In this document: piece after piece, positions 12,733-36,150 of the stretch
Layout of the letters: each line of letters starts with the position of its first letter
How positions within the stretch are numbered: the stretch's first letter is position 1
IMG/VR virus record: IMGVR_UViG_3300028591_000158
Coordinates: 21,044-85,043 of that record
Strand: one strand, 5' to 3'
DNA length: 64,000 bases
Source of the DNA: a virus
Lineage: Duplodnaviria; Caudoviricetes
The notes under the pieces: generated by a model
The model's database searches: none
What the model was told of the DNA's origin: nothing
The model's input: only the letters and a program-made list of their open reading frames with translations
Position numbers and translations under genes: made by a program

Positions 12733-13891
12733 AGATTTTGATATATTCTTAATCACAAAAGATAATTGAAAAAGTCAAGATGAAGTTTTTTATGGCTATA
12801 AGACTTTAGATGACAATGGGCTTTGATTAAAAGTATTTTGAGAGGATAGTTGCTTATTAATTAAGGGCAGTTATATTCAGCCTTATATTAGTATTTATCA
12901 ATCAGATGATTACTGGGCTATTTCTAATAATTTTTATTGTTTAGAACAACATTTAATTAGTAAGAATATTAAGCTTACTAAAAATAAAGCATTTGAAGAA
13001 TGGGACAAAGATTCTTTTAGGTTCTGTATTCAAGCAAGTCCAACAGAAACTTTATATAATGAAATTAAATTTAATGATAATTTTTCTTATTTAAAAATAT
13101 TAGATGGTAATTTAGAAATTATAAACTTGGAAATAGATTGCTTTACAAAACCTTTAGAGGATTCAAAAGAAGATTTATTAAATTGATATAAAAAATATTA
13201 TGATTATTTGCATACTTTACCCGAAGGTACTGTATCAGCCCAACTATCTGGCGGATTTGATTCAAGAATATTACTACCATTGTATGAAGATATAAATGGA
13301 GTCAGTATAAACGCACAGTGGAATAAAGAAGATGATGATAGTTATCGTGATGGATTAGCCGCAAGATTATATATTGCAAAAAAATATCCGCACTTATTTG
13401 ATAATTTACTTTCAAAAGAAGATAAAACTTGAGTTGCTAATAATGATAAGGCTAAACAAGAAAATGCAAAATTAATAACGCAATTTATCACTTATGGTTC
13501 ATATCCTATAAAAGGTGAGCTAGACTTATCAAATATGATGCCTTGTAAATCAACTAGTGGTAAAATAAGCTTAGCTGGAATGTCTCTTGAATTACATAAA
13601 AATAATCTAGCTAATAGCGTGCAAGAAATTGAAACAACTACAAGAAGATATTTTGTAAATAGATATTTAATTAGATATTATAGATCAAAACAAAGAGTAG
13701 TATGTCCTTTTCAAGATAAGGAATTATTAAAGATTAAAGGTTGTCGTGATTTAACATTTGTTTATATATTATTAGGATTATTTAATATTAACGATGAAAA
13801 ATTACCATATTATACTTATTTAAATAGTAAACCAGTTTTAAAGTTTGTTTCAAATGAAGAGATAGAAGAGGCGTTATCTTTATTAAAATAA
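12722..13891 (+). CDS. Asparagine-synthetase-like ATP pyrophosphatase, paralog 3
   Basis: LSGGFDSR PP-loop. Joins track ORFs 13208 and 13535 through TGA. Same N-terminal motif as paralogs 1 and 2. Confidence 0.7.
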
Positions 13892-14363: not shown

Positions 14364-14828
14364 ATGGAAAATAAGATTGGTTTTTGGGGTATTACTGATA
14401 CCTATGGTTGCTTTAGTAATTTTTATCCGTGTAAATTTAAGTGCTTTAATGATTTAGAATTTAATTGTACTGAGCAAGCTTTTATGTATGCTAAGGCAAT
14501 AACTTTTAATGATATTGAAATAGCAAACAAAATTTTAGCAGAGTCAGATCCTAAGAAGATTAAAGCTTTAGGTAGACAAGTTAAAAATTTTAATGATGAT
14601 ATTTGGAATGACTTGAGATTTATGTATATGCGTTTAGTTAATTATAGTAAATTTAGTCAGAATATAGAACTTTTAAATAAATTAGTTAGTACTGGATCTG
14701 CTTATTTATTTGAAGCATCACCTTATGACTCAATTTGGGGTATTGGTAAATTTGGAGATGGTCAAAATTTATTAGGACAAGTACTAATGCAGATTAGAGA
14801 AGATTTTATTTTAATGAGGAAAAAGTAA
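14364..14828 (+). CDS. NADAR family protein (YbiA-like)
   Basis: FSNFYP, TEQAFMYAKA, PKKIKALGRQVKNF, KFSQN, EASPYDSIWGIG, GQNLLGQVLMQIR. Confidence 0.93.
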   Translation: MENKIGFWGITDTYGCFSNFYPCKFKCFNDLEFNCTEQAFMYAKAITFNDIEIANKILAESDPKKIKALGRQVKNFNDDIWNDLRFMYMRLVNYSKFSQNIELLNKLVSTGSAYLFEASPYDSIWGIGKFGDGQNLLGQVLMQIREDFILMRKK

Positions 14829-15938: not shown

Positions 15939-16913
15939 ATGTCAAAATATTTTGTAATTAGTGACTTACATAGTGGCTATACACCCATGATGTATGCTCT
16001 TAATAAAGTTAAATTTGAACCAGATAATCCAGAACACACCTTAATTGTTTGTGGTGATGTTTTTGATAGACTTAATGAAACATTAGAAGTATATAATTTC
16101 TTAAAATCAATCCCAAAAGAAAGATGCATCTTAATTAGAGGAAATCATGAGGAATTATATTTAAAATTATTAGATAAAAAATATCCAGAATCTCATGATT
16201 TTTCTAATGGAACTGTATTAACATTTTGTCAAATAGCTGGTTATGAAGCAGATACAGCTTATGATTTGAGAGCTGGTTATCATATTAGTTATGGTACTTA
16301 TTGGGATAACGAAGTAATAGACCCTAAGTGTGAAAATATCTGGAATGATATCAAGAAAAAAGTTAAGGAATCAGAGGTAACAAAATGGTTGCAGTCAGAT
16401 CAGTGGATAAATTATTATGAGCTAGATAAATATATATTTGTTCACTCATTTATTCCTCTTGTATATAATGGTGAAAGAGGTTTTGATGAAGATTATTGCA
16501 TCTATTATGGTTGGACTCAATACTTTAAAGAAAGACCTGACTGGCGAGAAGCTAATGATTTAGAATGGGCTGGAGCAACTTGGGGTTGTGCCTATAAATT
16601 CTTTGATGCTGGTTTATTTGATCAAGAGAAAGAAAAAGGTAAAGTACTAGTTTGTGGACATTATAGATGTTCTGAATTTAATCAACATTACCTTAATTTA
16701 GAAACTCATGATATTTATTATGGAGAAAATTTAATTGCAATAGATGCAACAACCGCATTATCAAATCAAGTCAATGTATTGGTTATTGATGGTGATAAAT
16801 GTTATGATCAAAATGGTTTGTTAGAATATAAGAAACCTTGTCCTATCATTGAGACAGTTACTTTAGATAAAGATGAATATGAAAAATATACTAACGATGT
16901 AACAAATTCTTAA
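15939..16913 (+). CDS. Calcineurin-like metallophosphoesterase (Ser/Thr phosphatase type)
   Basis: SDLH, CGDVFDR, RGNHE, FVHS, VCGH, IDA motifs. Confidence 0.9.
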   Translation: MSKYFVISDLHSGYTPMMYALNKVKFEPDNPEHTLIVCGDVFDRLNETLEVYNFLKSIPKERCILIRGNHEELYLKLLDKKYPESHDFSNGTVLTFCQIAGYEADTAYDLRAGYHISYGTYWDNEVIDPKCENIWNDIKKKVKESEVTKWLQSDQWINYYELDKYIFVHSFIPLVYNGERGFDEDYCIYYGWTQYFKERPDWREANDLEWAGATWGCAYKFFDAGLFDQEKEKGKVLVCGHYRCSEFNQHYLNLETHDIYYGENLIAIDATTALSNQVNVLVIDGDKCYDQNGLLEYKKPCPIIETVTLDKDEYEKYTNDVTNS

Positions 16914-16935
16914 AAATAAAGGGGTGGTTTTACTA

Positions 16936-17820
16936 ATGAAAATATTTAATGAAAATTTAGAAAGAATTACAATATTACATATGGCAGGTAAAACCACTAT
17001 GCCTGAATTTAAAACAATTATTGAAGGTCAAAAAAAGAATTTAATAATTAAAGATGATAGTATATCAATAATTATTATTGCAACTAAAAATTATATTAAA
17101 GATTCACCTGTCATTAATCAATTAAAATTTAATAATATTAGATATTATAATGGAGCACAAGAGCTTGATGAAGAAGGTTGGAGTAATTCAATGAAAATTG
17201 ATCTTATTTTAAATAATTTAAAAAAGATTAAAACTGAATATACTTTAATTCTTGATGCTCGTGATGTTCTTATATGTGATCATTTAAATAAAACTTTTAT
17301 AAATAAATTTAAAAAGTTAAACACTAAAATTTTATTTAATGCTTCAAGTTCAAGATATCCAAGTTGGATTAATATTAAAGCTGTTGATACAAAATATAAA
17401 AATAATTTACAAAGTAAGCCGTTTTTAAATGCAGGTGTTTGTTTTGGTGAAACAAAAGCACTACATGCTATGTATCAAGCTGCAAGTGAGATTAGTAAAA
17501 AATATAGCCAGTTAAATAAATCTGAGCAATTCATATTAAAGCTTGCAATATCTGCTAATAATTTAACTTCTGTGGTAAGTCTAGATAATGAAGATAAATT
17601 ATTTAAGTGTGTGCATCAATCAATAGATAAGCCTGATTTTTTAGTAATTAGAGAGTCCGGTAATTATGTTATTAAAAATATTAGAAATTATCAGTATAAG
17701 ACTTCTAGATATAAGAAAAAAATAAAATTAAAAATAGAAAAAGCAAAATTAATTTTATATCCTAATAGTAAAGGTCATGAGGAAGAGGTTAAAACCTTTA
17801 TTGACAAAATAAGAAAGTAG
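16936..17820 (+). CDS. PLOD-type glycosyltransferase domain protein
   Basis: LILDARDV, LFNA, FLNAGVCFG, SEQ match the lysyl-hydroxylase GT-domain pattern (FTD.YDV, F.AE, YLNSG...G, DDQ). Confidence 0.6.
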   Translation: MKIFNENLERITILHMAGKTTMPEFKTIIEGQKKNLIIKDDSISIIIIATKNYIKDSPVINQLKFNNIRYYNGAQELDEEGWSNSMKIDLILNNLKKIKTEYTLILDARDVLICDHLNKTFINKFKKLNTKILFNASSSRYPSWINIKAVDTKYKNNLQSKPFLNAGVCFGETKALHAMYQAASEISKKYSQLNKSEQFILKLAISANNLTSVVSLDNEDKLFKCVHQSIDKPDFLVIRESGNYVIKNIRNYQYKTSRYKKKIKLKIEKAKLILYPNSKGHEEEVKTFIDKIRK

Positions 17821-20260: not shown

Positions 20261-20318
20261 TTACCCCTAGTTTTCTGCTAAATTATATAGCAAAATAAAA
20301 ATCATGGAGGCTTTAGCT

Positions 20319-20783
20319 ATGCGTGACATGTTTTATAATTATGATAATAATATTCCAAATAACTCATGTAATAACTATCCTGACATTTATAAATATAAAA
20401 AGGCACCAAAGACTTTCAATACATTCCACGGTGCTAAAATGTTAAGAGACAAAGCAGGTAAATTTTTAGGTATTGAAGCCACAAGAAATTCTACTGTTAG
20501 ATTGTTTTTTTCATTTGAAGGACTTTCTGACCCAGAAGAAGTTCAAAATTTACTAGAAAATAATTTAGTTCGTTTTGATGTTTTAGATACAAATCACAAT
20601 ATATTACTTGAATGTGATGTTGAAGTTTTTTCACTTTATGATATGGTTAGTATAGAGCTAATATTAAGTGAAGAAAGTAAATTGGTTGGTGGTAATGTAT
20701 ATAAAATGCATTTATATACAATTATAGATGGTGTAACTTATGACTTATTTTCTGAAAACGATGGATTATTATATGTAAAGTAA
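20319..20783 (+). CDS. Hypothetical, beta-rich probable virion protein
   Basis: RBS GGAGG. Follows a GCTAAATTA motif. Confidence 0.6.
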   Translation: MRDMFYNYDNNIPNNSCNNYPDIYKYKKAPKTFNTFHGAKMLRDKAGKFLGIEATRNSTVRLFFSFEGLSDPEEVQNLLENNLVRFDVLDTNHNILLECDVEVFSLYDMVSIELILSEESKLVGGNVYKMHLYTIIDGVTYDLFSENDGLLYVK

Positions 20784-20796
20784 GGAGAATAAGCAA

Positions 20797-21291
20797 ATGA
20801 GAAATTTTAAAATAATTACAACTTTAAATATCGTTCCAACTAAAAAATTAACTAAATATTGGTATAAAGTTACTAGAGGTACTAGTACTAATTTTATGTT
20901 TGATTTAGTTGATAGAGCTTATAATTTCGAAGATATAGTACAATTATCTTATAGATTTGTTAGTAAAACTGGACAAATGATTCATTATGATATGTATATT
21001 TATAATTATTTAAAAGATGGTACTATTGAAGCTATCTTTAATGATGAATATTTTGAGCATGTTAAAGGTTATTCTACTGATTTAGAGCAAGAAATACCTT
21101 ATGAGTATGTTAATTTAAAGCTAACAGGTAATGATACTAATGAATTCTGGCTTGCTAATAAAGATAATCCATTAAACTTTGAAGTAGCTGTTACTATAAA
21201 TAATAATGTAAATAAAGATACTGAAAATAACTATACATATATTGAAAAACAATTGCCAGTTATTGTATTAGATAGCAGAGGAGTGAATTAG
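20797..21291 (+). CDS. Hypothetical, probable virion protein
   Basis: Intact ORF. Ig-like VTRGTSTNF pattern similar to the next gene. Confidence 0.55.
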   Translation: MRNFKIITTLNIVPTKKLTKYWYKVTRGTSTNFMFDLVDRAYNFEDIVQLSYRFVSKTGQMIHYDMYIYNYLKDGTIEAIFNDEYFEHVKGYSTDLEQEIPYEYVNLKLTGNDTNEFWLANKDNPLNFEVAVTINNNVNKDTENNYTYIEKQLPVIVLDSRGVN

Positions 21292-21292
21292 T

Positions 21293-21643
21293 ATGTCAAA
21301 AATAATAAGACTTTATAGAGGTGATACTTTTAATTTTGTTTTAAATATTGATGATGAAAGTACTCTTGAACATTATTATGTTTTAAGAAAAAATGATTTA
21401 GTTTATTTAGGTGTCACACTTCCTCATCAACCATTTGAAGATGCTATCATTAAAAAAGTATTAACAGCTGCAGATTGTGATTCTTCTGGAAATATCATAG
21501 TTACTTTTGAACCAAAAGATACAGTAAATATTATGCCAGGTGTTTACTATTACTCTGTTAAATTAAGAAAATCAATTGATGACAAGCGTAAAGAAGAAGT
21601 AATAACAGTAATACCAAAAACAAAATTTGTTATACTTGATTAA
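21293..21643 (+). CDS. BppU-like Ig-fold baseplate or tail accessory protein
   Basis: LYRGDTFNFVL ... PGVYYYSVKL pattern. Confidence 0.5.
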   Translation: MSKIIRLYRGDTFNFVLNIDDESTLEHYYVLRKNDLVYLGVTLPHQPFEDAIIKKVLTAADCDSSGNIIVTFEPKDTVNIMPGVYYYSVKLRKSIDDKRKEEVITVIPKTKFVILD

Positions 21644-21662
21644 TTAGAGAGGTATAGGTAGA

Positions 21663-22274
21663 ATGTCAAGAATTATATTCTCAAAAAAATCACTTACAAG
21701 CTCAATTGAAGGTGATATCAAAGTAAATAGTAAAGCTACTGCAGATACATATAGTCTTACTACTATTGATCATGATAAACTTAAAAACAGAGACTTAGCA
21801 GACCAACACCCAATTAGTGCAATTACTGGTTTAAATACTATCATAACTCAACTTGAATCTGGTGTTGAAGAGGCAACAAACAAAGCAACTATTGCTGAAA
21901 GTCAAGCTACAATTGCAATTACAAAAGCAGAAGAAGCTCTTACAAATCATTTATATGAATATTTAGTATACTTTAATTTCAATAAGTCAGGTACAGGAGC
22001 TGCTTATTACTCAGTATACTTCACTTTAAAATCAACTATAGAATATGATCCACAGGAAATTGACTTTGCTATATTAAGAAATATGATTATCGCTAATGGT
22101 GATCATGTACAATGTTCTTGTCAAACAGCAGGACCATTAGATATGAATATTATATCAACAAGCACTAATGCCGGTGATGATACAATTATGGTTGATTGTA
22201 AGTCTGGTGATTTCTATGAATTCTATAGCTTCAGTGATCTAGAAGATTATAGTATTACAAAATTAAATTATTAA
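21663..22274 (+). CDS. Tail-fibre-like protein
   Basis: DHDKLKNRDLADQHPISAITGL motif of phage fibre proteins, followed by a short coiled coil. Confidence 0.55.
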   Translation: MSRIIFSKKSLTSSIEGDIKVNSKATADTYSLTTIDHDKLKNRDLADQHPISAITGLNTIITQLESGVEEATNKATIAESQATIAITKAEEALTNHLYEYLVYFNFNKSGTGAAYYSVYFTLKSTIEYDPQEIDFAILRNMIIANGDHVQCSCQTAGPLDMNIISTSTNAGDDTIMVDCKSGDFYEFYSFSDLEDYSITKLNY

Positions 22275-22275
22275 T

Positions 22276-22305
22276 AAAGTGGTTTAAATAGCCACTTTTT
22301 CTTTT
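22276..22305 (+). terminator. Rho-independent terminator
   Basis: AAAGTGG...CCACTTT plus T-tract. Confidence 0.7.
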
Positions 22306-22345
22306 ACTTAAATTGTATATATTAATGATATTTGGAGGTATTTAT

Positions 22346-22693
22346 ATGACAAGTCAAGAATTTGATAAAATAGTTAATGAAACATTAGAAAATATTAAGA
22401 GTACTTTACAACGTAAATCTAAAGAATATAACTTAGATGAAGATCGTTTAAGTGTATTTAAGAGAGCTGCATCAATTCAGCATCAAACACCTTCACAAGC
22501 ATTACTTGGTATGCTTACTAAACATATTATATCAATATATGATTATGTAGAAACTGATGCTTATTTTTCAAATGAATTAGCAGCAGAGAAAATAAATGAT
22601 GCTATCAATTATTTATTGTTATTATATGCATTAAATAAAGAGTATAATGATTATAGATTGAGTCTTAATGCAGCTCAATCAAATAAAGAATAG
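22346..22693 (+). CDS. All-alpha NTP-pyrophosphatase-like protein (nucleotide-modification-associated domain type)
   Basis: K..EY...DRL..FK, GMLTKH, EKINDAINYL helical motifs. Confidence 0.5.
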   Translation: MTSQEFDKIVNETLENIKSTLQRKSKEYNLDEDRLSVFKRAASIQHQTPSQALLGMLTKHIISIYDYVETDAYFSNELAAEKINDAINYLLLLYALNKEYNDYRLSLNAAQSNKE

Positions 22694-22711
22694 TTAAGGA
22701 AGTATTATTAA

Positions 22712-23239
22712 ATGATTAATGGTATTGTATGTGTAGATAAAAATTTTGCAATTGGTAAAAATAATGCTGAAGGTAAACCTCAATTATTATTTAATATTTC
22801 TGCTGATATGGCTTATTTTAAAGAGAAAACATTACATAATATAGTTGTAATGGGTTATACAACTTATTTATCCTTACCAAAAAAGCCTTTATCTGATAGA
22901 GTTAACCTAGTTTTATGAGATAAAGCAACATCGCCAGATTGTTTAAAAGGCTGTATTACATTTAATAATTTTGATGTATTATTAAAATTTGTTAAAGAGC
23001 TAAGCAAAATATACGAAGTATTTGTTATTGGTGGTGCTTCTGTTTATAATTTATTTATGCCTTATTATGATAGATTATTTATAACAAAAGTAGCTGCAGA
23101 AGATAAAGAAGCAACAGCTTTTTTTCCTAATATAGATAAAGATACTAATTTTGAACTTGTAAGCAAAATGAACTATGCACCTAAAAATGAGTATCCATTA
23201 TCATTTACAATTTATTCAAGAATAAAGGAGAATAAATAA
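22712..23239 (+). CDS. folA: Dihydrofolate reductase
   Basis: IVCVD...IG, DMAYFKEKT, VVMGYTTYLSLP.KPL.DR.N, VIGGASVY. One internal TGA at 22916. Confidence 0.92.
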
Positions 23240-24078
23240 TGTCAGTAGCAGATAAGTATTTTAAAGATGCAGTTAATAAGATTTTAACTAAAGGCGTTTC
23301 AGATGAAGCTTTTGAAGTCAGACCTAAGTGGCCTGATGGAACTCCAGCTCATACAAGAAAGATTCATTGTTATATTGCAAGATATAACTTAGCTGAAGAA
23401 TTTCCAATTTTAACTCTTAGAACTCAAGCCTTTAAATCTTGTGTTAAAGAGATACTTTGGATGTGGCAAAAGAAGTCAAATAAAGTATCTGAATTAGGTG
23501 CTCATTTCTGGGATGCCTGGGAATTAGAGGATGGAACTATTGGTAAGTCTTATGGCTATCAAGTAGGTCGTAAATTTCACTTTAAAGAAGGTTTTATGGA
23601 TCAAGTAGACTTATTACTATATAAGTTAAAAAACAATCCTATGGACCGAAGAATGATAGTTACGCTTTGGGATAACGAAGACTTAAAAGATATGGCGTTG
23701 GCTCCATGCGTATTTCAATCAATTTGGGATGTTGCTGACGGTAAATTAAATATGACTTTGATACAAAGGTCAGGAGATGTTCTTGCTGCCGCAGCCCCAG
23801 GAGGTTTTGATGTGGTTGAATATGCAATTTTACAGCACATGATTGCCCAAGTATCTGGTCTACAGGTAGGGGAGTTAGTACACATTGTCACAAATTTACA
23901 TATTTACGATCGACATGAAAAGTTAGTTAAGGAAGTACTTGAAAATCCTGAATATCCAGCACCAAAGTTCTGGATTAATCCTGAAGTTAAGAATTTCTAT
24001 AACTTTAAACCTGAAGACTTTAAATTAATTGATTATAAATCGACTAAGGCAAGCAGTTCATTCGAGGTTGCAGAATAA
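23239..24078 (+). CDS. thyA: Thymidylate-synthase-family enzyme with Asp at the dUMP-specifying Asn position
   Basis: MALAPC, QRSGD, HIYDRH. FDVVEY where canonical enzymes have FN/WN...Y. Confidence 0.9.
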   Translation: MSVADKYFKDAVNKILTKGVSDEAFEVRPKWPDGTPAHTRKIHCYIARYNLAEEFPILTLRTQAFKSCVKEILWMWQKKSNKVSELGAHFWDAWELEDGTIGKSYGYQVGRKFHFKEGFMDQVDLLLYKLKNNPMDRRMIVTLWDNEDLKDMALAPCVFQSIWDVADGKLNMTLIQRSGDVLAAAAPGGFDVVEYAILQHMIAQVSGLQVGELVHIVTNLHIYDRHEKLVKEVLENPEYPAPKFWINPEVKNFYNFKPEDFKLIDYKSTKASSSFEVAE

Positions 24079-24395
24079 TGAAATTAGTTAGAGACAATAT
24101 TCCAAGTATTATAAAGCAACAAGTAGGTAAATGTAACTATCATGCTTGTAAAAATAATGAAGAGCTTTTAAATTATTTAAATAAAAAAGTTTTTGAAGAA
24201 GTTGATGAATTCTTAAAAGATCCATCAGTAGAAGAACTAATTGATATAATAACTGTTGCTATTGCTATTCTTAAAAATAAAAATGTATTAGATGATAGCT
24301 ATTCATTAGATGATATATTTGTAATTTTAGAAAATAGCTATAACACAAAAGCAAGAGAACGTGGCGAATTTAAAAAAGGTTATATTTTAGAATAA
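24078..24395 (+). CDS. MazG-like / phosphoribosyl-ATP-pyrophosphohydrolase-like NTP pyrophosphatase
   Basis: KLVRDNIP, KVFEEVDEF, EELIDI, K..ERGEF..GY.L. Confidence 0.8.
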   Translation: MKLVRDNIPSIIKQQVGKCNYHACKNNEELLNYLNKKVFEEVDEFLKDPSVEELIDIITVAIAILKNKNVLDDSYSLDDIFVILENSYNTKARERGEFKKGYILE

Positions 24396-24401
24396 GAGAG
24401 G

Positions 24402-25400
24402 ATGATTGTATTGCAGTTTATAGATAGACTAGTAGAAAGCTATGAGAATAGCAATTATACTAATGTATTAATTGAACAATTTGTTAAATTATATATTGAG
24501 CCTTGGAGATTTAATTATTTAGCTAAGTCTTGGAAATGCCCAAAAAGTGAAGTTAATAGAGCTATTTTATCTGCAGAAGATTGGGAGAAAGAAAGACAAC
24601 TATTTTTAGCAGCTGGAAAAAATATAGTAGTTAATAATACTGCTGAAGTTTGTGCAACAGCTTATAATTATGGTAAAAGCTATTTAGTTTGGCTAGAATT
24701 TATAGCTCCTGATAATACAGTTCATAAAATTGATGCTTGGATACAAGAAACAGGTAAAAATGCCAATTTTGGTAAGCAAGGAAAAAATGCTGAAAAGTTT
24801 ATTGATCCAAGAAGTCCTTTATGCCAAGATATATATGATTCAATAGTTAATAAAGGATATATAGATCCTAACATTGCTAAGCTATTAAATAGTGTAGGTT
24901 CATTAACTTGGACTGGTAACAAAGAACAAAGAGTACAAAAGAAATTAAATAGTTTTATTCAACAAAAATTATTTGAAAAAGCTGTTGATTATGCAATAAA
25001 AAATTGTAAAATAAATGTTGTTTTATTACAATTAGATAAGTTTGATGATTACTTATATAAAGGTGATCCTGGAAAATTAGCTGATTATGATTTAAGAATA
25101 ACTACAAGTACAGATATATTTAGTGCAAGAATAGATCTTAAACTGCTTGAAGATAATGATACTGCAAAAAATCAAAATCCACATGATGCTGATTTATTAA
25201 TTGTATCTAATTGGAGAGATGCAAAAGTTGGATTTTATAGAGTTACTGGAAACCCTGGAATTGAAAAAACAGAAGAGTTTCAAACAATCTTACAATTATT
25301 TAATGAGATGCTAATTAGTGCAGGCAAGTGTTTTATTCATATTTCAAAAATCGATGAAGAAACAGGCAAAGTTGATTTTAATATGTTTGGAAATATTTAA
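24402..25400 (+). CDS. Hypothetical protein, possible C-terminal PD-(D/E)xK-like domain
   Basis: Intact 332-aa ORF. ADYDL...IDLK could be a nuclease motif (weak). Confidence 0.5.
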   Translation: MIVLQFIDRLVESYENSNYTNVLIEQFVKLYIEPWRFNYLAKSWKCPKSEVNRAILSAEDWEKERQLFLAAGKNIVVNNTAEVCATAYNYGKSYLVWLEFIAPDNTVHKIDAWIQETGKNANFGKQGKNAEKFIDPRSPLCQDIYDSIVNKGYIDPNIAKLLNSVGSLTWTGNKEQRVQKKLNSFIQQKLFEKAVDYAIKNCKINVVLLQLDKFDDYLYKGDPGKLADYDLRITTSTDIFSARIDLKLLEDNDTAKNQNPHDADLLIVSNWRDAKVGFYRVTGNPGIEKTEEFQTILQLFNEMLISAGKCFIHISKIDEETGKVDFNMFGNI

Positions 25401-25427
25401 CCCAATTAAAAGTTGGGTTTTATTTTT
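25399..25427 (+). terminator. Rho-independent terminator
   Basis: AACCCAA/TTGGGTT stem plus T-tract. Confidence 0.7.
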
Positions 25428-25477
25428 AGCTATTTGCTAAATTAATTAGTATTTATAGTTTTAAAGGAGACTATTTT

Positions 25478-26092
25478 ATGGATAATAATAGATATTATAA
25501 TAAATTAGATCTTACTTATGCTCTTGAACATAAAGAAGAATGTATGGAAAAAATAAGTAGCCAATTTGGCTATAATGGTGATATAACTACAGGTGGTTTT
25601 TACATAATGCCAGATGGCACTGCTATTAAATCTACTAATCATGCTGATATTGATAAATATTTAATGAAACTTAAATATATACCAAAAGCAGATGTTGATT
25701 TTAGTGATGGTAGTCAATTCATGGAAGAGATAAACTGTTTACGATTAAGACGTAGAGGTGGAAAGGATGCTTGAATGCTTCCTTATGTATTATTACCAGA
25801 AAAACAATTAACACAAGCACAATATAATATTTTAACTAAGTGGTTAGACTTTGTATTAAATGCTAATGGTGAAATTAATGTTCAAGCTCAAAAAGCATTT
25901 TCTGGCGCTAATAAAATATTTAAAACATCACAAGGTATTTGAACTGATGATATTATTGATTCTATAAAAACATATTATAGAACTGATATTTTAGAAGGTG
26001 CTGAATATGATAATATATTTGATGATGAGATTGATCAAACAGACTATCAATTAAAATATGATATAGATAAAGGATTCTTTGATCAATTTTAG
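25478..26092 (+). CDS. Hypothetical protein
   Basis: RBS AAGGAG. Reads through 2 TGA to TAG 26090-26092. Follows a GCTAAATTA motif. Confidence 0.7.
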
Positions 26093-26134
26093 CGGTAAAA
26101 AAATTTGCTAAATTAAATGATAACAGTGCTGTTA

Positions 26135-26236
26135 TAATTAAAAGATATTGTATAATATAATATAAATATGAATGATAAAAAAAGAATGATAATTAATTAA
26201 AAGATATTTTATAAAAGATATGTAATAAACGATATT
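26135..26236. repeat. AT-rich direct repeats (TAATTAAAAGATATT x2 plus AAAGATAT-like variants)
   Basis: Exact 15-mer at 26135-26149 and 26194-26208, degenerate copies near 26212 and 26226, in a ~280-bp non-coding AT-rich gap. Confidence 0.55.
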
Positions 26237-26375
26237 TATATAAATTAATAATTAATTATCTTAACTAGATTGTCATTCATTAATTTGAGTGACAATTTTT
26301 GTTTTTATTGATTTATTCAGATAAAAAAATTGTATTTAAGTATGGAATATTATTTGATAAGGAGATTTTTATTTA

Positions 26376-26786
26376 ATGAAGATTAAGTTGTTTAAAGAAA
26401 TTACTTTACCACTTAAAAAACGTGATAGTGATGCAGGTTGGGATGTTTTTTTACCTGAGGATGTCACTTTTAAGGCACATTCACTTACAACTGTTGATTT
26501 AGGTTTTGGTGTAAAATTACCTAGTGGCTATGCAGGCTTATTTGCAATGAGAAGTTCTGTTTGTAAAACAGGTATGACTATTCAAATGCCGCTTATTGAT
26601 GAAGGATATCTTGGAGAATTACATTTATTAGTACAAAATTCAACAGATACTGACTATAGTTATAAGAAGGATGAAAGAGTTTGTTCTTTGTTTATTTTCC
26701 CAGTATTTAGAGATACATTAGAAGTAGTTGATGATTTAGGAACATCAGACAGAGGAACTAATTGGTCAGGTAGCTCAGGTAAGTAG
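26376..26786 (+). CDS. dut: Trimeric dUTPase
   Basis: DAGWD, RSS, IDEGYLGE, ERVCSL, RGTNWSGSSG. Confidence 0.88.
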   Translation: MKIKLFKEITLPLKKRDSDAGWDVFLPEDVTFKAHSLTTVDLGFGVKLPSGYAGLFAMRSSVCKTGMTIQMPLIDEGYLGELHLLVQNSTDTDYSYKKDERVCSLFIFPVFRDTLEVVDDLGTSDRGTNWSGSSGK

Positions 26787-26807
26787 TTTTTTAAGGGAGG
26801 TGAATCT

Positions 26808-27482
26808 ATGTCAAATTGTTTTCTTTATGCGTTTTGTAACCACAAAGACTGTGACAAAGATTTTTGTTTAAGAAAATATAAGTTAGAATATTTATATGAT
26901 AATGCATTGGTATCAGAAGCTCAACGTAAGCATATAAAGTTAAGAATAGATGAAGATGGAACTGATTATAATGAGTTTATGCAGCTGGCTGAAATTGAAA
27001 AAAATATTGAAAATTTTGTTCAAGAAGGTCAAAATTTATATATCCATTCTACAATATGTGGCTGTGGCAAAAGTTCCTGGGCATTACGTATGATTGAGGC
27101 TTATTTTAATAAAATTTGGCCTAAAACTGATTTGATTTGTAGAGCCTTATTTATTAATGTCCCTAGGTTTTTAGTTGCGTTAAAAGACAATATTTCGAAT
27201 CCTAGCGAGTATATTGCACATATCAAAGACAATATTGCCAATGCCGATTTAGTTGTTTGGGATGACATAGCAGCTAAAGTTGGGTCTGAGTTTGAATTAA
27301 ATCATTTATTAAGTTTAATTGATCTTAGAATTGCTAATGGTAAAGCTAATATCTATACATCAAATTTAGATAAAGACGCAATTTACAATGCTTTAGGAGA
27401 AAGAATTGCCAGCAGAATTTGTAATATGTCACACGAAATTGAACTGCATGGTAGTGATAAACGCTTCTTAAGAGTTAATTAG
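26808..27482 (+). CDS. DnaC/IstB-like helicase loader ATPase
   Basis: CGCGKS Walker A, VWDDI Walker B, YTSNL, LGERIASRI. Confidence 0.85.
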   Translation: MSNCFLYAFCNHKDCDKDFCLRKYKLEYLYDNALVSEAQRKHIKLRIDEDGTDYNEFMQLAEIEKNIENFVQEGQNLYIHSTICGCGKSSWALRMIEAYFNKIWPKTDLICRALFINVPRFLVALKDNISNPSEYIAHIKDNIANADLVVWDDIAAKVGSEFELNHLLSLIDLRIANGKANIYTSNLDKDAIYNALGERIASRICNMSHEIELHGSDKRFLRVN

Positions 27483-27496
27483 GAAGAGGTGATTGT

Positions 27497-28876
27497 ATGA
27501 CAGCACAATATCAAGTTTTATTAAAAATATTACAAACGGGCGATTTATCTATTGTTACTTTAAATGATTTAACTGAAGACTATTTTTCAGATTATAGAAA
27601 TGAATTTAATTTTATAATGAATCATTATAAACAATATAAAAAAGTACCAGATTTATTAACACTTGCTGGTGTATTTCCTGATTTCTTTCCAGAAACAGGT
27701 GTGCCAGAAGTTAAAGAACCAGATAATTATTTATTAGAAAAATTGTATGAAGATTATTCATTTGCATATATAGTAAATAATTTAAAGACAACTAAAAATT
27801 TACTAGAAAAAGATGAAATTGAAAAAGCTCGTGATATCTTTATAAATGCAGCTAAAAATATGCGTAGAGGATCCAGCTTAACTTGTACAAATTTAATAAA
27901 AGATACATCAAGATATGAAAGATATGTTGAAAAAACAACTAATTGGAATAAGTATTATTTATCAACAGGTTTTCCAGAACTAGATAAATTAACTGGCGGT
28001 ATTGATCGTGAAAATGAAAATATGGTTATTGCTGCACGTCCAGGTCGAGGCAAAACAATGGTGCTAGTAAAGATGGCAACTGCTGCTTCTATGCAAGGAC
28101 TATGTGTAGGTATATATGAGGGTGAAATGACAGCTGATAAATTAGGTTATCGTGTCGACACTTTCTTAGGACATATTAAAAATTCATCTTTAAATCATGG
28201 TGACTTATTTATCCAAAAAGAATATAAAAAATATATAGATAGCTTAGCTGTTGCAAATTATGGTGATATTAAAGTTATTACGCCAAATGATATTGCAGGA
28301 GCTCCAACAGTAGATGCATTAAGAGCATTTATTGAAAAAGAAAAGTTAGATATATTATTTGTTGACCAATATTCACTACTTGAAGATAAAAGTGGTGCTA
28401 GAAAAGAAAATGAAAAAGTTGCTAATATTTCAAAAGCAATTAAACAATTACAAGTAGAAAAGCATATACCAATTATCTCTGTTTCACAAATGAACAGAAC
28501 ATCTAATAAAGATGAAAATGGTAAGGCTGGCGAAATGGATACTAACCAAATTGCTTTGTCAGATAGAATTGGACAAGATGCAACAGTAGTATTAATGCTA
28601 GAACGTAAAGATGATGATAAGTTAATTATTCACACAACTAAGTCAAGAGATGGTGGCGATAATAGAAAGTTAACTTATAAGATTGATTTTAATTATGGCT
28701 CATTTACATTTATTCCAAGTGAAGGTGACTCAATTACTACTACTGAGGACCTAGAAAATATTGCACATAGTTATGATCAAAATATAGCAAATGAGATTGC
28801 AAATAATTTTGGGCCAGATGATGAAACACCTGATTATACAGATGTAACAAATTTTGGAAATGACAGGCCATTTTAA
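27497..28876 (+). CDS. dnaB: Replicative helicase DnaB
   Basis: AARPGRGKT, EGEM, FVDQYSL, SQMNR, SDRIGQDA, KSRDG. Confidence 0.93.
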   Translation: MTAQYQVLLKILQTGDLSIVTLNDLTEDYFSDYRNEFNFIMNHYKQYKKVPDLLTLAGVFPDFFPETGVPEVKEPDNYLLEKLYEDYSFAYIVNNLKTTKNLLEKDEIEKARDIFINAAKNMRRGSSLTCTNLIKDTSRYERYVEKTTNWNKYYLSTGFPELDKLTGGIDRENENMVIAARPGRGKTMVLVKMATAASMQGLCVGIYEGEMTADKLGYRVDTFLGHIKNSSLNHGDLFIQKEYKKYIDSLAVANYGDIKVITPNDIAGAPTVDALRAFIEKEKLDILFVDQYSLLEDKSGARKENEKVANISKAIKQLQVEKHIPIISVSQMNRTSNKDENGKAGEMDTNQIALSDRIGQDATVVLMLERKDDDKLIIHTTKSRDGGDNRKLTYKIDFNYGSFTFIPSEGDSITTTEDLENIAHSYDQNIANEIANNFGPDDETPDYTDVTNFGNDRPF

Positions 28877-28901
28877 AATGTAGAAATGGGGGTGATGTTC
28901 T

Positions 28902-29858
28902 ATGTTTAGAGTAAATAATAATTATATAGTTAAAACTGATATTGAAGAAATATTACAAAAGCTTAGATTAGTATTAACTAATGGAAAATTATCTAACTTC
29001 CGTAGAACATCATCAGGCATTAGTGTTCCTTGTCCTCATCATGCTGGAGGACAAGAGAGTCACAATTCTTGTTATATAACAGATGATGGTATATTCCATT
29101 GTTTTACTTGTGGAACATCTGGAAATTTTGTTAAATTTGTACAAGAATGTTTTGATTGTTCAAGAGAATATGCCGAAGAATGGTTAATAACTAATTTTGG
29201 AGAATTATCAGCTCACTCTATAAATATTGATTTAGATGTCTTAGATATAAAAAATAAACAAAAAAAGATATTTTTAGATAAGAATATACTAGAGAATTTT
29301 CAAGATTGGTGTCCATATTTTGCAAAAAGAGGCTTATCAGCTGAGACATGTAAGAAATATAATTTAAAATATGATCCAATATATAGACAAGTTATATTTC
29401 CATGCTATGATGCTAGAGGACATTTATTAATGTTAGCTAAAAGATCTATAGATACAAAAACATTTTACTTAGACAAAAATATAGAAAAACCAGTATATTG
29501 CTTAAATACTATTATTAATAATAATTGTAGAAGTGCAATAATTACAGAAGGACCATTTGACTGCCTATTAGCTAATCAGTATGGTTTTCCAGCATGTGCC
29601 ACTTTAGGTAATATTTCAAAATCTCAGATAGAGCAAATTAATAAGTCATCTCTAAAGATAATTTATACTATGTTTGATAATGATGAAGCAGGAAGAAATT
29701 TTGCAAAGATTATTGAACATGGTGTTGCTAGAAATATTTTAGTAGTAGATATTAAAATACCAAAAGGTAAAAAAGATATTGGCGAATTATCTTATGAAGA
29801 ATTTTGGAATATTTTAAATACTTATGGTATTACACAGCAAAAAAGCTGTATAATATAA
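28902..29858 (+). CDS. dnaG: DNA primase (CHC2 zinc finger plus TOPRIM)
   Basis: CPHH...HCFTC, ITEGPFD, FDNDEAG, KDIGE. Confidence 0.92.
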   Translation: MFRVNNNYIVKTDIEEILQKLRLVLTNGKLSNFRRTSSGISVPCPHHAGGQESHNSCYITDDGIFHCFTCGTSGNFVKFVQECFDCSREYAEEWLITNFGELSAHSINIDLDVLDIKNKQKKIFLDKNILENFQDWCPYFAKRGLSAETCKKYNLKYDPIYRQVIFPCYDARGHLLMLAKRSIDTKTFYLDKNIEKPVYCLNTIINNNCRSAIITEGPFDCLLANQYGFPACATLGNISKSQIEQINKSSLKIIYTMFDNDEAGRNFAKIIEHGVARNILVVDIKIPKGKKDIGELSYEEFWNILNTYGITQQKSCII

Positions 29859-29921
29859 AGTGCTGATTAAAGCACAAAAAGATACAAAATAAAAGATAAA
29901 AAATTAAAGGAGAAAAAAAAG

Positions 29922-30773
29922 ATGTCAAAATTTAGTATCAACGATTATCAAGAAGTAAAAGAAAGAGCAGCAGAAAATTCAACTAATTCTGCTGACAGAG
30001 TAAGAGTTGGATTCTTTAAGCTTAAGAATCATGGCGATCAAGCATTAGTTAGAATTAATTGTAGTAAGTTAGAAGATTTAGAATTTGCTACAGTACATCA
30101 ATTAGGTGCTGCAGCAAAATATATGAAGGTCAGCTGTTTAAATAAAGTTGGTGAATATACTGACAACTGTCCATTCTGTAAGGCAGCTAAGGCTGGAAAT
30201 ACAGCAGTTGGAAAAGCAGCTAAGAAGTGCTATGTTCAAATGTTAGTTTCTTATATTGACGGTGCAACAGGTCAATTATCTGCTCCAATTCCAGTTGTTT
30301 GGGAAAGACCTGCTGGATTCTCTTCAGAATTAGCAACTAAGTTAAAACAATATGGAAATTTAAAAGATGTTTTATTTACTATTACTCGTAATGGTATTGC
30401 AGGTGCAAAAGATACAACATATTCTATCGATTATGCAATTCCAACAGTATTTAAGCCTGAATTTATCCCAGCTGATTTCTCAGCATTTGATAACTTTAGA
30501 ATTGATAAGCATTCATATTGGGAAAAATCAGTAGATGAAATGAATACTTATTTAACAACTGGTCAATTTCCAGAAGTTCAAAGACAACAAGTAGTTGATC
30601 CAAAAGCTTTTATTCAACCTACTCCAGCACCAGAAGTTCGTCCAATTTATGGAGCACCAGTACAACCAACACCAGTACAACCTGCTCCACAAGCTCCAGT
30701 GCAACCAGCCCAACCAGAGCAACCTGCACAACCAACAAATAATGGAACTAGAAATTTTGGCCAATTTTGGTAA
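29922..30773 (+). CDS. Single-stranded DNA-binding protein with Pro/Gln-rich tail
   Basis: FFKLKNHGD, HQ...C...CPFC zinc motif, WER, ITRNG..KDTTY. Lies between primase and polymerase. Confidence 0.7.
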   Translation: MSKFSINDYQEVKERAAENSTNSADRVRVGFFKLKNHGDQALVRINCSKLEDLEFATVHQLGAAAKYMKVSCLNKVGEYTDNCPFCKAAKAGNTAVGKAAKKCYVQMLVSYIDGATGQLSAPIPVVWERPAGFSSELATKLKQYGNLKDVLFTITRNGIAGAKDTTYSIDYAIPTVFKPEFIPADFSAFDNFRIDKHSYWEKSVDEMNTYLTTGQFPEVQRQQVVDPKAFIQPTPAPEVRPIYGAPVQPTPVQPAPQAPVQPAQPEQPAQPTNNGTRNFGQFW

Positions 30774-30824
30774 AATATAGTTGTATAATAATTAAATAAT
30801 AAAATTAAAAATTGAGGTGGTCTT

Positions 30825-32576
30825 ATGCAAAGTCTTTTCGGAGATGAATTTAATATTGATTTTAATAAACCAAAAGCTAAAGAATTAGCTAGTAAAGCAA
30901 GAGTAACAGCTGGCTCTGAAGAATACGACCCAATGAAAATTCTTAAAAGTAAAAAAGTTTCATTGGAAGACCAACTCTTAGTAATTAAAGAACAAGTCAT
31001 TAGGGTCTTAGGAAAACAACGTAAAAATATTGTTGTTATCAGAAGTCTTAATGACTTTTCTGACTATATAACAGCTTGTATAGAGTCTGGCTATATTTCA
31101 GTAGATACTGAAACTAATAACTCACTTGATCCAGTTACTTGTAAACTAATGGGTCTCTGTCTATATTATCCTGGTGGTAAGCAAGCCTATATTCCAGTAA
31201 ATCATAAAGATCCAAAAACAAAAGAAAAGTTATCAAATCAAATAACTGAAAAACAAATAAAAGAGCAATTACAAAGAGTAAAAGATGCAAAAACATTTGT
31301 AGTAATGCATAATGCTAAGTTTGATTTTAGTGTTATAAAGTGTACTTGTAATATTGAATTATTAGCAGATTGGGATACTTCTATTGCAGCTGCTTTAATT
31401 GATGAGAATGAAGAAAAAGGATTAAAAAAGCAATATATATTACATATTGATCCTTCACAACAAAAGTATAGTATTGAAGGATTATTTGCTCATATTCCTT
31501 ATGCTTATGTTGATCCAGAAATATTTGCATTATATGCTGCAACAGACTCATTAATGACTTTTAGATTATTTAAAGAATATCAAGAACCTATTTTATTAGC
31601 TGAGGATAATAAGAAAGTTAAATGGGTATTTGATAATATTGAAATGCCATTAGTTGAAGTTACAGCTAAAATGGAATTAAAAGGTGTATGTGTTGATCAA
31701 GCATTAGGAAAAAGACTTGAAGATAAATATAATGCTAAACTTGCAATTGTGGATAAAAATATTGCAGAAGAGCTAGATAAATTACAAGATAGAATAGTTA
31801 AGTGGAAGTTAACTAAAGATGCCAATGACGTTACTAAGAGATATGTACCTAAGAAATCAAAATTATCAAAAGAAGCTTTAGAGAAAAGATATCCATTAGT
31901 TGATAATGATGGTAAGCGTTATGCAGTTGGAAAGTCTAAGGCATCACAATTAACTGACCCAATTAATCTAGCTTCACCAGTACAAATGGCTATCTTATTT
32001 TACGATATTTTAAAAGCTCCTATAGTTAATAAAAAATCACCTAGAGGAACAGGTGAAGAAGAAATTAAGGCAATTGATGAAAAAATGAATATTCCATTAT
32101 GCAAGCTATTATTAAAACGTAGAGGATTAGTTAAAATTTTAACTACTTATATCACAACAATACCAACTCTTGTTGAACATTGGCCTGATAAAAGAATTAG
32201 ATTCCATCTTGATCAAACAGGTACTGCGACAGGCAGATATTCATCTGGAGGAAAATTAAAGTTTATGGACGAGACTACAGATGAACCAATAGAAGTGTCG
32301 GGTATTAATATTCAAAATATTCCTTCACACGAAAAAAGTATAAGACAATTATTCATTGCTGACTGTAAATATGATACTGTTGAAGCTGAAAATAATGAAA
32401 TTTCAATTCCAGAATATACAGAAATTGAAACTGTAAATGGATATAAATATCCAATAGACTTAACTGATGCTGATATCATTGTTGGCGAAGATACAAATAC
32501 AAATTATAAAATAAATAAAATATTATTAGATAACAAAATATATTATATAAATTTAACTCCGTTTAACTCTAATTAA
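30825..32576 (+). CDS. polA: Family A DNA polymerase, N-terminal part (3'-5' exonuclease, thumb, start of palm)
   Basis: VDTETN, HNAKFD, YAATD, IEMPL..V...ME..G, TATGRYSS, NIQNIP...IRQLFIA. Ends in an unrelated ~63-aa tail. Confidence 0.92.
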   Translation: MQSLFGDEFNIDFNKPKAKELASKARVTAGSEEYDPMKILKSKKVSLEDQLLVIKEQVIRVLGKQRKNIVVIRSLNDFSDYITACIESGYISVDTETNNSLDPVTCKLMGLCLYYPGGKQAYIPVNHKDPKTKEKLSNQITEKQIKEQLQRVKDAKTFVVMHNAKFDFSVIKCTCNIELLADWDTSIAAALIDENEEKGLKKQYILHIDPSQQKYSIEGLFAHIPYAYVDPEIFALYAATDSLMTFRLFKEYQEPILLAEDNKKVKWVFDNIEMPLVEVTAKMELKGVCVDQALGKRLEDKYNAKLAIVDKNIAEELDKLQDRIVKWKLTKDANDVTKRYVPKKSKLSKEALEKRYPLVDNDGKRYAVGKSKASQLTDPINLASPVQMAILFYDILKAPIVNKKSPRGTGEEEIKAIDEKMNIPLCKLLLKRRGLVKILTTYITTIPTLVEHWPDKRIRFHLDQTGTATGRYSSGGKLKFMDETTDEPIEVSGINIQNIPSHEKSIRQLFIADCKYDTVEAENNEISIPEYTEIETVNGYKYPIDLTDADIIVGEDTNTNYKINKILLDNKIYYINLTPFNSN

Positions 32577-32671
32577 CTCTAATTAATAGCCTAATTAGCT
32601 TATAACTAGTTGATAATTAACTGTATAATATAAAAAGTCTATATGACAAGAAAGGACGGTGGTGCCACGCT

Positions 32672-33856
32672 ATGAGCAAAATAAAAACTAGAACAAGATA
32701 TAAAATTGTTGGTTCAGATTATTCTGCTCAGGAATAGCCTGAGCCACGATTAGCCGCATATATGTCTCAAGATCCAGAAATGAAAAAAGTTTATTTTGAA
32801 GGTAAAGATTTATATGCTAGAATTGCTCAGTCAGCATTTAACAATGATTATGCTGATAATCTAGAATTTTATCCAGAAGGAACTGAGCTTGAAATTGATG
32901 GTAAAAAAGTAATAGCTGGTAAAAAAACTCATAAAAATCCTGAGGGAAAAAGTCGACGTTCTGTTGGAAAAACATTACTTTTAGCAGCAAATTATGGCAT
33001 GGGACCTAAGACTGCTGGTGAAAAAATGGGTAAATCTGCTAAAGAAGGTGGTGAACTACTAGAGAGCTTTTTCAAAGGCTTTCCAGTTTTAAAACAAACT
33101 ATTGAAGAATCAAAAGTATTCTTAAAAAAGAATGGCTATGTTGAAGATGCATTTGGTAGACGTAGGCATATTCCAGAAATCAATGAAAAGCCGTATGATG
33201 CAAGGTATGCTGATGAGAAAAAAGTTGAAGAATTAACTTTTAATCCATTTTTAAATTGTAATAATAGAACTTTTACAGATGATAAATTAAATAAATATAT
33301 TACACTTGCAAAAAACACTAGAAATAATGAAGACTTTGATAAATTAGCTAGAGAGGCTGATCGAGATGGAATTATATTAACAGCTAACACTGGTAGAATA
33401 GCCCAAGCTGAAAGACAATGTTTTAATGCAAGAATTCAGGGTTCAGCAGCTTCACTTACTAAGCTAGCAATGGTTAATATATTTAATGATGCATTATTAA
33501 AAGAATATAAAGCTGACTTAATTATTTCAGTACATGATGAAGTATTAGTTGAGTGCCCAGATTATTATGCTGACAAAGTTGAAGAACGTTTGCCAAAAAT
33601 TATGATTGATACAGCTAAGCCATATATTGATATTCCGATGAGTTGTGACCCTTATAATGTTACCCGTTGGTATAGTGATGAAATGGCTGCACAGCTAAGA
33701 GAAGAACTAGATAAAATGGAAAAAGGTGATCCAGATAAAAATATACCACCAATTGCACATGATATTGCAGTTCAAAATATTTATAAAGATCATTGTGAAA
33801 TTCCAAAAGAAGCTATAGACAAATGTTTAGCAAGTAATGATGATTTAGAGTTTTAA
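32672..33856 (+). CDS. polA: Family A DNA polymerase, C-terminal part, with in-frame TAG at 32735-32737 inside motif A
   Basis: MSKIKTRTRYKIVGSDYSAQE*PEPRLAAYMSQD, motif B RSVGKTLLLAANYGM, NARIQGSAA, motif C VHDE. Confidence 0.88.
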
Positions 33857-33870
33857 AGGAGATATAAGAT

Positions 33871-36112: not shown

Positions 36113-36150
36113 TAAACATTGACTAAATTAAATATAAGTAGGAGATGATT

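Follow-up and report, generated by a model that had tools for sequence, protein, structure and literature searches.

A phage ThyA-family enzyme with aspartate at the pyrimidine-specificity position: a predicted 5-methyl-dCMP synthase in a gut virus that reads TGA as tryptophan

Which nucleotide does a thymidylate synthase (TS) homolog act on when the asparagine that discriminates between pyrimidines has become an aspartate? A ThyA-family gene raises this question in IMG/VR record IMGVR_UViG_3300028591_000158 (Duplodnaviria; Caudoviricetes), an 85,043-bp sequence with a CheckV completeness of 38%, whose final 64 kb we analysed (hereafter the window; 64,000 nucleotides, numbered from its first letter). 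An earlier interpretation, made from the letters alone and here called the sequence-only reading, had taken the gene for an enzyme modifying deoxycytidine monophosphate (dCMP) and had linked it to flanking pyrophosphatases and to a distant island of carbamoyltransferase and glycosyltransferase genes. Using a combination of alignment, phylogeny, gene context and structure comparison, we favour, with a probability of roughly 0.6, a phage 5-methyl-dCMP synthase that would operate together with a dihydrofolate reductase (DHFR) and a MazG-like deoxycytidine triphosphatase (dCTPase). The coordinates of the genes and residues discussed are collected in Table 1.

The predicted protein belongs to the ThyA superfamily by its full-length match to PF00303 (Thymidylat_synt; E 1e-73, 248 bits against a cut-off of 24.3, residues 7-271) and by its conserved catalytic set, and its closest solved structure is Bacillus subtilis ThyA (PDB 1B02, E 5e-77). 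Aligned with Escherichia coli ThyA (from NC_000913.3), B. subtilis ThyA, phi3T ThyP3, T4 gp42 and the enzyme of Xanthomonas phage Xp12, it is canonical, in E. coli numbering, at E58, W80, W83, Y94, R126, R127, L143, C146, Q165, R166, S167, D169, H207 and Y209 (the conserved set including Glu71, Tyr105, Arg137/138, Arg177, Ser178, Asp180, His221 and Tyr223 in its own numbering). The catalytic Pro-Cys pair is intact, as had been read from the sequence, with Cys157 in an ALAPC motif at the place of E. coli Cys146. The aspartate reported at the site of E. coli Asn177 is likewise borne out by the open reading frame (ORF), by the GAT codon and by the alignments with both the B. subtilis and the E. 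coli enzyme: Asp191 stands four residues ahead of Tyr195 and is preceded by a 3-residue insertion that forms an AAAAPGG loop. While the generic model TIGR03284 scores 165 bits, above its cut-off of 108, the best ThyA subtype model, NCBIfam NF002495, reaches 289.6 bits, under its equivalog cut-off of 327. The enzyme thus departs from canonical thymidylate (dTMP) synthases at position 177 and in its equivalog score, and we count this shortfall for a non-canonical function.

Asp191 is neither a chance substitution nor a sequencing error, because 118 of the 120 nearest homologs (63-85% identity) carry Asp in the same column, within the motif QRSGDxLAAAA[SP]GG[WF]D. These homologs come from a clade of ~220-kb phages of animal guts and rumen, whose shared synteny comprises the genes for TS, DHFR, deoxyuridine triphosphatase (dUTPase), a DnaC-like protein, DnaB, primase and PolA; of the 39 Asp-type relative loci, 36 have DHFR within 1-9 kb of TS. 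Four relatives reach 95-100% completeness; each retains DHFR and has no PF00303 homolog besides its Asp-type gene, a second PF00303 match in one of them (G003) being the same gene in the terminal redundancy. A canonical second thyA or a thyX elsewhere in the genome had been considered earlier; the search found neither a second TS nor ThyX in the 38%-complete 85-kb record, and no ThyX in the four near-complete relatives.

The wider family sets this clade against a background of asparagine. The canonical L143/D169/N177 combination occurs in 114 of the 150 nearest representatives of 50%-identity clusters, and L/D/D in about 12. A quick IQ-TREE maximum-likelihood tree, restricted to rows of 255-300 amino acids (aa) with all key columns filled and built without fused, truncated and Cys146-lacking representatives, assigns the window TS to a nine-row clade, every row with Asp (SH-aLRT 97); the sister to this clade (P0117, support 100) has Asn at 177 together with the same loop insertion. 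This sister shares 63% identity with the phage enzyme and belongs to a thyA-folA operon on a bacterial chromosome (L096:6703-8045, GCA_045601085.1) with Wzy, glycosyltransferase, UPRTase, peptidyl-tRNA hydrolase and Mfd genes as neighbours; its lineage perhaps points to a donor or host lineage. The two make the closest natural Asn/Asp comparison pair. Across the tree the Asn/Asp state changes at least six times, and three other independent Asp177 lineages all lie in phage-like neighbourhoods, all four of the Asp lineages examined being phage-borne. The nearest Clostridia chromosomal ThyAs (48-49% identity) have Asn at 177, and the bacterial chromosomal neighbours keep it with one exception. 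This recurrent pattern suggests functional switching rather than drift. It also speaks to the objection that genuine bacterial ThyA enzymes of the subfamily might often have Asp, an objection that the dCMP-modifying interpretation survives.

The exception is found in a metagenome-assembled genome (MAG), Clostridiales bacterium GWD2_32_19 (L003:3870-7557, MGOU01000021.1), where a fusion of NTPase and dCMP deaminase, an Asp177 TS, DHFR, a PHP phosphatase and MazG form an operon that is chromosomal and neighboured by the genes for aspartate kinase, pta and ackA. Its Asp177 enzyme is the sole TS homolog in the ~2.0-Mb assembly, the completeness of which is not established, and a search for ThyX found none there. 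This arrangement suggests that Asp177 enzymes may serve a dTMP route independent of deoxyuridine monophosphate (dUMP), in which dCMP would be converted to 5-methyl-dCMP and then deaminated.

A further departure lies at the end of the chain, where the window enzyme has Glu in place of the Val or Ile of canonical TS. The C-terminal carboxylate of TS closes the active site, and the terminal Glu may matter for catalysis. The same residue (codons 24073-24078) is common to the Asp-type clade, its Asn-bearing sister and the unrelated Xp12 enzyme.

Published experiments give the substitution at position 177 its meaning. The Asn-to-Asp mutants N177D and N229D are dCMP methylases (Hardy & Nalivaika 1992; Liu & Santi 1992, cited in PMC8670742), Asp at 177 confers specificity for dCMP and homologs that carry it are over-represented on phage contigs with modified cytosine (PMC8670742), and 5-methyldeoxycytidine (5mdC) was made in vivo by five of seven tested Asp177 phage homologs as well as by Xp12's own enzyme (bioRxiv 10.1101/2024.12.05.627091). 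Because the alignment, the clade-wide Asp, the Asn-bearing bacterial sister and these experiments all point the same way, they support the proposal that Asp at this site is the mark of an enzyme that modifies dCMP instead of making dTMP, and on this point the sequence-only reading probably judged correctly. It had left the product as either 5-methyl- or 5-hydroxymethyl-dCMP. Under a published residue code, a methyl product is associated with a bulky hydrophobic side chain at position 143, a hydroxymethyl product with Asp or Glu there, and a 5-hydroxy-dCMP product with D169N (PMC13326640). The signature of the window enzyme, Leu143/Asp169/Asp177, is of the methyl type under this code (PMC13326640): position 143 is not acidic, as a hydroxymethylase would have it, and the 169 site holds Asp180 and not the Asn of a 5-hydroxy-dCMP synthase. 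Leu143, Asp169 and the retained DHFR therefore favour the methyl half of the alternative and count against the hydroxymethyl half. DHFR is required only when folate gets oxidised, and its retention fits an enzyme that still produces dihydrofolate, though the Asp-type enzyme is the relatives' sole TS homolog.

Going beyond the observed fold, residues, conservation, gene context and phylogeny, we infer the substrate and product of the enzyme, the substrate of the pyrophosphatase and the fate of the nucleotide as follows. A TS-fold enzyme switched from dUMP to dCMP would keep the reductive methyl transfer and turn 5,10-methylenetetrahydrofolate and dCMP into 5-methyl-dCMP and dihydrofolate, which the DHFR encoded by the overlapping upstream gene would recycle. 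The MazG-like pyrophosphohydrolase would probably hydrolyse deoxycytidine triphosphate (dCTP), thereby supplying dCMP and at the same time lowering the canonical dCTP pool. Phosphorylated to 5-methyl-dCTP, the product would then enter phage DNA and replace cytosine partly or wholly, as in Xp12; if the missing 62% of the genome encodes a deaminase selective for 5-methylcytosine (5mC), it would also feed deoxythymidine triphosphate (dTTP).

The genes that this mechanism calls upon follow one another in the order already given by the sequence-only reading, from a helical protein resembling nucleoside triphosphate (NTP) pyrophosphatases through DHFR and TS to a MazG-like protein. The DHFR/TS and TS/MazG-like junctions each consist of a one-base overlap, TAATG, and DHFR, TS and the MazG-like gene are therefore probably translationally coupled. 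The two flanking genes had both been read as NTP pyrophosphatases that purge the canonical nucleotide, and here their evidence diverges. For the downstream gene the assignment as MazG-like is supported. Over 99% of its length the protein matches homologs P0393 (42% identity, PF03819 MazG) and P0394 (41% identity, PF12643), the latter labelled a house-cleaning NTP pyrophosphatase by JGI, and its structure matches NTP pyrophosphohydrolase clusters in the Atlas at a TM of 0.80. The protein begins with KLVRDNIP and carries EExxE and EExxD motifs (FEEVDE and EELID), which we take from general family knowledge to be its metal-binding site. A direct Pfam scan of the 105-aa protein gave no match, hhalign found no relationship between its profile and either the MazG protein of the Clostridiales operon or the profile of the upstream partner, and its AF2 model, built on a 4-sequence alignment, is poor (pLDDT 63), with Foldseek matches that are not significant and a MazG-related chain first among them. 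Purging of the canonical nucleotide is plausible for this gene.

For the upstream gene both its family and such a role stay unproven, but it is a genuinely conserved partner of TS. Of the 39 Asp-type relative loci fetched, 22 carry a homolog at 0.3-2 kb upstream of TS; beside the Asn-type bacterial thyA genes among the loci fetched there is none. The protein matches phrog_6802, of unknown function; an Atlas feature match of 0.96 leads to a cluster with DUF1599 in 50% of its members; and its AF2 model (pLDDT 85) draws MazG-family chains as top Foldseek matches at an E of only 0.8-4. A VIA search with this model returned mostly generic helical hairpins, although the MazG-like chain 2p06_B spans most of it with a Z of 7.7. 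Pfam, including PF07659, matched none of 15 members of its family, the protein itself has no NCBIfam or PDB sequence match, and PDB sequence and profile searches with both small flanking proteins gave only spurious helical or coiled-coil matches.

Beyond the MazG-like gene, the nucleotide-metabolism block continues to the dUTPase gene and on to DnaC-like, DnaB, primase and PolA genes, a synteny repeated in the relatives. The intervening ORF 24402-25400 (332 aa) matches no family. Of the relative loci fetched, 10 encode homologs of it (39-51% identity), placed 2-6 kb downstream of the Asp-type TS and just past DHFR in 5 distinct arrangements; the ORF may be a further member of the module. PHROGs and Pfam searches matched neither this ORF nor ORF 25478-26092, nor the unfamiliar ORFs of the island discussed below.

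Reading these genes at all depends on the genetic code. The record has a G+C content of ~27% (73% A+T) and all its genes lie on the + strand. Under table 11 many of them appear broken, while reading through TGA yields ORFs that follow one another along the whole of the DNA; gene stops are TAA or TAG throughout and never TGA. Compared with relatives, two conserved TGA columns are Trp in 11 of 11 rows each, and the TGA column of DHFR is Trp in 8 rows and Cys in 24. TGA is thus a sense codon for Trp in this phage (code 4). The two halves of DHFR match PF00186 positions 1-62 and 105-159 in the same frame across the TGA, and since that codon is read as Trp, DHFR is one intact gene; a split gene or pseudogene, which table 11 would imply, is ruled out by the use of TGA as Trp throughout the record. 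A search of the 85-kb record for a suppressor tRNA found none, and no tRNA of any kind is encoded there. TGA codons are unevenly spread, with 1-8 per gene at 495-13891 and 9 in one gene left of the window, while they are absent from most of the nucleotide-metabolism and replication genes at 20304-34998. Most relatives with an Asp-type TS apparently use the standard code.

Several observations weigh against a 5-methyl-dCMP synthase and have to be set beside its merits. In the Xp12 enzyme position 143 holds Asn instead of a hydrophobic residue, which makes the rule for this position loose, and two of the seven tested Asp177 homologs yielded no 5mdC (bioRxiv 10.1101/2024.12.05.627091). The adjacency of DHFR and TS is inherited from a bacterial thyA-folA arrangement and, being ancestral, proves nothing on its own. 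A 73% A+T genome with a dUTPase, to which many relatives add dCMP deaminase and FolD, also matches the classic equipment for supplying dTMP, and the one TS homolog in it could simply be a dTMP synthase. On that account Asp would be tolerated, perhaps with the help of the AAAAPGG insertion, in a plain dUTPase/TS/DHFR module, and it would explain why complete relatives have no other TS homolog, why its remaining active site is canonical and why its closest structure is a true TS. The insertion, however, does not compensate for Asp, since the Asn-bearing sister has it as well; the discriminating role of Asn177 is established, and its replacement by Asp abolishes the preference for dUMP (PMC8670742, PMC13326640). 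Taken with the retention of Asn in all bacterial chromosomal neighbours but one and with the repeated switches in phage-borne lineages, these points leave an ordinary dTMP synthase improbable to our minds.

Another account accepts the chemistry of a 5-methyl-dCMP synthase and disputes its purpose: 5-methyl-dCMP would be only an intermediate, turned by a genome- or host-encoded deaminase into deoxythymidine nucleotides, and the packaged DNA would carry ordinary cytosine. Deaminases adjoining Asp177 TS genes do turn 5mdCTP into dTTP (bioRxiv 10.1101/2024.12.05.627091), and a dCMP-deaminase-family gene lies near TS in three of the four near-complete relatives, a likeness to the TS-deaminase-DHFR module of Xp12 that favours a 5-methyl-dCMP synthase too; neither a deaminase nor a deoxynucleoside monophosphate kinase was found in the 38%-complete 85-kb record, and the closest complete relative (G001) also has no deaminase, an absence that sits poorly with such a route and counts against a 5-methyl-dCMP synthase as well. 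The high dTTP demand of a 73% A+T phage would suit the route, as does the Clostridiales MAG, whose operon joins a deaminase fusion to a sole Asp177 TS with no ThyX and shows that Asp177 need not mean 5mC-substituted DNA. Yet in Xp12 and in the B5 contig a deaminase coexists with full 5mC substitution (bioRxiv 10.1101/2024.12.05.627091), and a MazG-like dCTPase coupled to TS fits the exclusion of dCTP from DNA. We regard this use of the product as unlikely, if slightly less so than an ordinary dTMP synthase.

The sequence-only reading had gone further and, for the case that 5-hydroxymethylcytosine (5hmC) is made, joined the TS locus to the island at 1-18 kb, the enzymes of which would carbamoylate and glycosylate it, so that both loci would form one cytosine-hypermodification system. 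The island proper (window 1-13891, extending leftward) contains a two-domain carbamoyltransferase gene and at least seven paralogous genes of radical S-adenosylmethionine (radical-SAM) type, along with several ORFs of ~340-400 aa without a family match. The idea has a precedent, in that a phage carbamoyltransferase acting on 5hmC has been described and is found on modified contigs together with TS homologs, PRA-PH/MazG proteins and deaminases (PMC8670742), and the window does combine a carbamoyltransferase, a glycosyltransferase and an Asp177 TS. Leu143, where a hydroxymethylase would have Asp or Glu, and the retained DHFR speak against the enzyme it needs. The published carbamoyltransferase requires 5hmC and is inactive on 5mdCTP (PMC8670742); since the TS is predicted to be of the methyl type and no source of 5hmC is predicted, an island carbamoyltransferase of the 5hmC type would be left without a substrate. 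Carbamoyltransferases flanked by glycosyltransferases also occur on unmodified contigs (PMC8670742). The gene order agrees poorly with a joint system too: the carbamoyltransferase lies 14.5 kb from TS among the radical-SAM-type paralogs, and cassette and Asp-type TS occur separately, no TS having been found within 10 kb either side of the cassette in its two closest carriers and no carbamoyltransferase in the four near-complete phages with an Asp-type TS. Where carbamoyltransferase loci fetched from IMG/VR do have a TS (6 of 46), all six are canonical Asn177 enzymes. One joined system is not supported, and a dCMP hydroxymethylase feeding the island seems to us very unlikely, although the island might act on DNA by another route.

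The closest relatives of the carbamoyltransferase (79% and 52% identity) are in phage contigs that also read TGA as Trp (L048 and L049) and carry the same radical-SAM cassette, adjoined by a UDP-glucose dehydrogenase or methyltransferase gene. One carrier cassette adjoins Gp23-type capsid and prohead protease genes, and the other lies among large Laminin_G and Gp49-like, tail-looking proteins. A single-sequence scan of IMG/VR for the close carbamoyltransferase subfamily gave no match, and an alignment scan found only relatives at <=38% identity. A bolder link between the loci would have the TS make 5mC and a radical enzyme of the late-gene island functionalise the methyl group after replication, followed by carbamoylation or glycosylation. 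If true, cytosine would be hypermodified in a new way, with no need for a hydroxymethylase or for TET, and we rate the idea a long shot. A Tet/JBP search of the record gave no match, and its control genomes gave none either, which makes it uninformative. Between the radical-SAM island and structural-looking genes lie a NADAR-domain protein (14364-14828), a calcineurin-like metallophosphoesterase (15939-16913) and the glycosyltransferase, which is PLOD-type (16924-17820).

Table 1. Genes and residues of the TS locus and of the carbamoyltransferase island (window positions)
Feature	Position	Strand	Basis or remark
Paralogous radical-SAM-type genes	5045-6064, 6071-7090, 8701-9687, 9691-10482, 10493-11521, 11636-12649	+	one more just left of the window
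Two-domain NodU/TobZ-type carbamoyltransferase	7109-8695	+	phrog_1601, Nol-like carbamoyltransferase
All-helical protein, 115 aa; conserved TS partner, possibly DUF1599/Nmad1-like, MazG-superfamily-like	22346..22693	+	synteny; weak family hints
Dihydrofolate reductase, 175 aa; one in-frame TGA (22916-22918) = Trp	22712..23239	+	PF00186; TAA stop overlaps TS start
ThyA-family enzyme, 279 aa; predicted dCMP C5-methyltransferase (5-methyl-dCMP synthase)	23239..24078	+	PF00303, residues, clade
Leu154-Ala-Pro-Cys157 (E. coli L143 to C146)	23698..23709	+	catalytic Cys and position-143 residue
GAT codon of Asp191 (E. coli Asn177 equivalent; pyrimidine-specificity residue)	23809..23811	+	alignments with B. 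subtilis and E. coli ThyA
MazG/PRA-PH-like all-alpha NTP pyrophosphohydrolase, 105 aa; candidate dCTPase	24078..24395	+	start overlaps TS stop
dUTPase	26376..26786	+	PF00692, E 7e-19; same nucleotide-metabolism block

The full stretch is present in a sheep-gut DNA run, its probable source. In a sheep-gut metatranscriptome from a different study, contigs with zero mismatches cover DHFR, most of TS, the TS/MazG junction and the dUTPase gene; this fits transcription of the locus, weakly, as the comparison used assembled contigs only, so that gaps in RNA cover are uninformative, and DNA carry-over is possible. A goat-gut DNA run holds a relative of window 22000-27000 at 90-95% identity. Elsewhere in the window, the replication-gene region contains a GIY-YIG/NUMOD3 homing-endonuclease-like gene (36145-36954) and a gene with NUMOD1 and I-HmuI-type NUMOD-like domains (52934-54127), and a peptide deformylase homolog lies at 49963-50733.

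The Asp177 principle and the mining of IMG/VR for Asp177 homologs are already published, and the advance made here is incremental. What the locus adds is a clade in which an Asp177 TS evolved independently, in jumbo phages of both code 4 and the standard code. If we are right, 5mC made at the nucleotide level takes the place of cytosine, or is used beside it, throughout a clade of ~220-kb ruminant and gut phages, which would bear on restriction evasion, on methylation-sensitive library preparation and on the reading of virome data. The bacterial Asn thyA and its phage Asp sister, 63% identical and in a lineage with at least six switches, also amount to a natural experiment in enzymology.

Set against known systems, the window enzyme is closest in sequence to B. 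subtilis ThyA and phi3T ThyP3 (1B02, 1BKO), with ~48% identity, full-length colinearity, Val147 and a DGTPAHT-type N-terminal phosphate-binding segment in common, from which it differs by Asp for Asn177, the 3-residue insertion, Gly168 and a C-terminal Glu for Val. With T4 gp42 and the RB69/DLP3 5-hydroxy-dCMP synthases it shares Asp at the 177 equivalent, which predicts a dCMP substrate; in contrast, T4 gp42 (~22% identity) has Asp143 in place of Leu143, and the RB69/DLP3 enzymes have D169N where the window enzyme has Asp169 (PMC13326640). The metagenomic Asp177 homologs described previously (Yang et al. 2021 eLife MetaGPA, PMC8670742; bioRxiv 10.1101/2024.12.05.627091) have the same diagnostic residue and likewise come from phage metagenomes and IMG/VR, and their partners recur here as MazG/PRA-PH in the window and as a dCMP-deaminase-family gene and PolA in the relatives. 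The present clade combines B. subtilis ThyA/phi3T descent with ~220-kb phages and, in this genome, with TGA as Trp. The functional parallel is the Xp12 dCMP methyltransferase (QNN97214.1), which shares Asp177, Asp169, the catalytic Cys, the Arg/Ser/His/Tyr set and the C-terminal Glu, is partnered by DHFR in a TS-deaminase-DHFR operon and makes the 5-methyl-dCMP that we predict for the window enzyme. The two differ at position 143, which is Asn in Xp12 and Leu in the window enzyme, and the available 85 kb shows no counterpart of Xp12's adjacent deaminase. At ~22% identity, and with the Xp12 enzyme on a distant, very long branch of its own, the two have independent origins, the window gene nesting within the B. 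subtilis ThyA-type Asn lineage and not sharing Xp12's descent. We thus predict that the window enzyme works like the dCMP C5-methyltransferase of Xp12 but was reached separately, by a switch at the same residue of a different ThyA ancestor.

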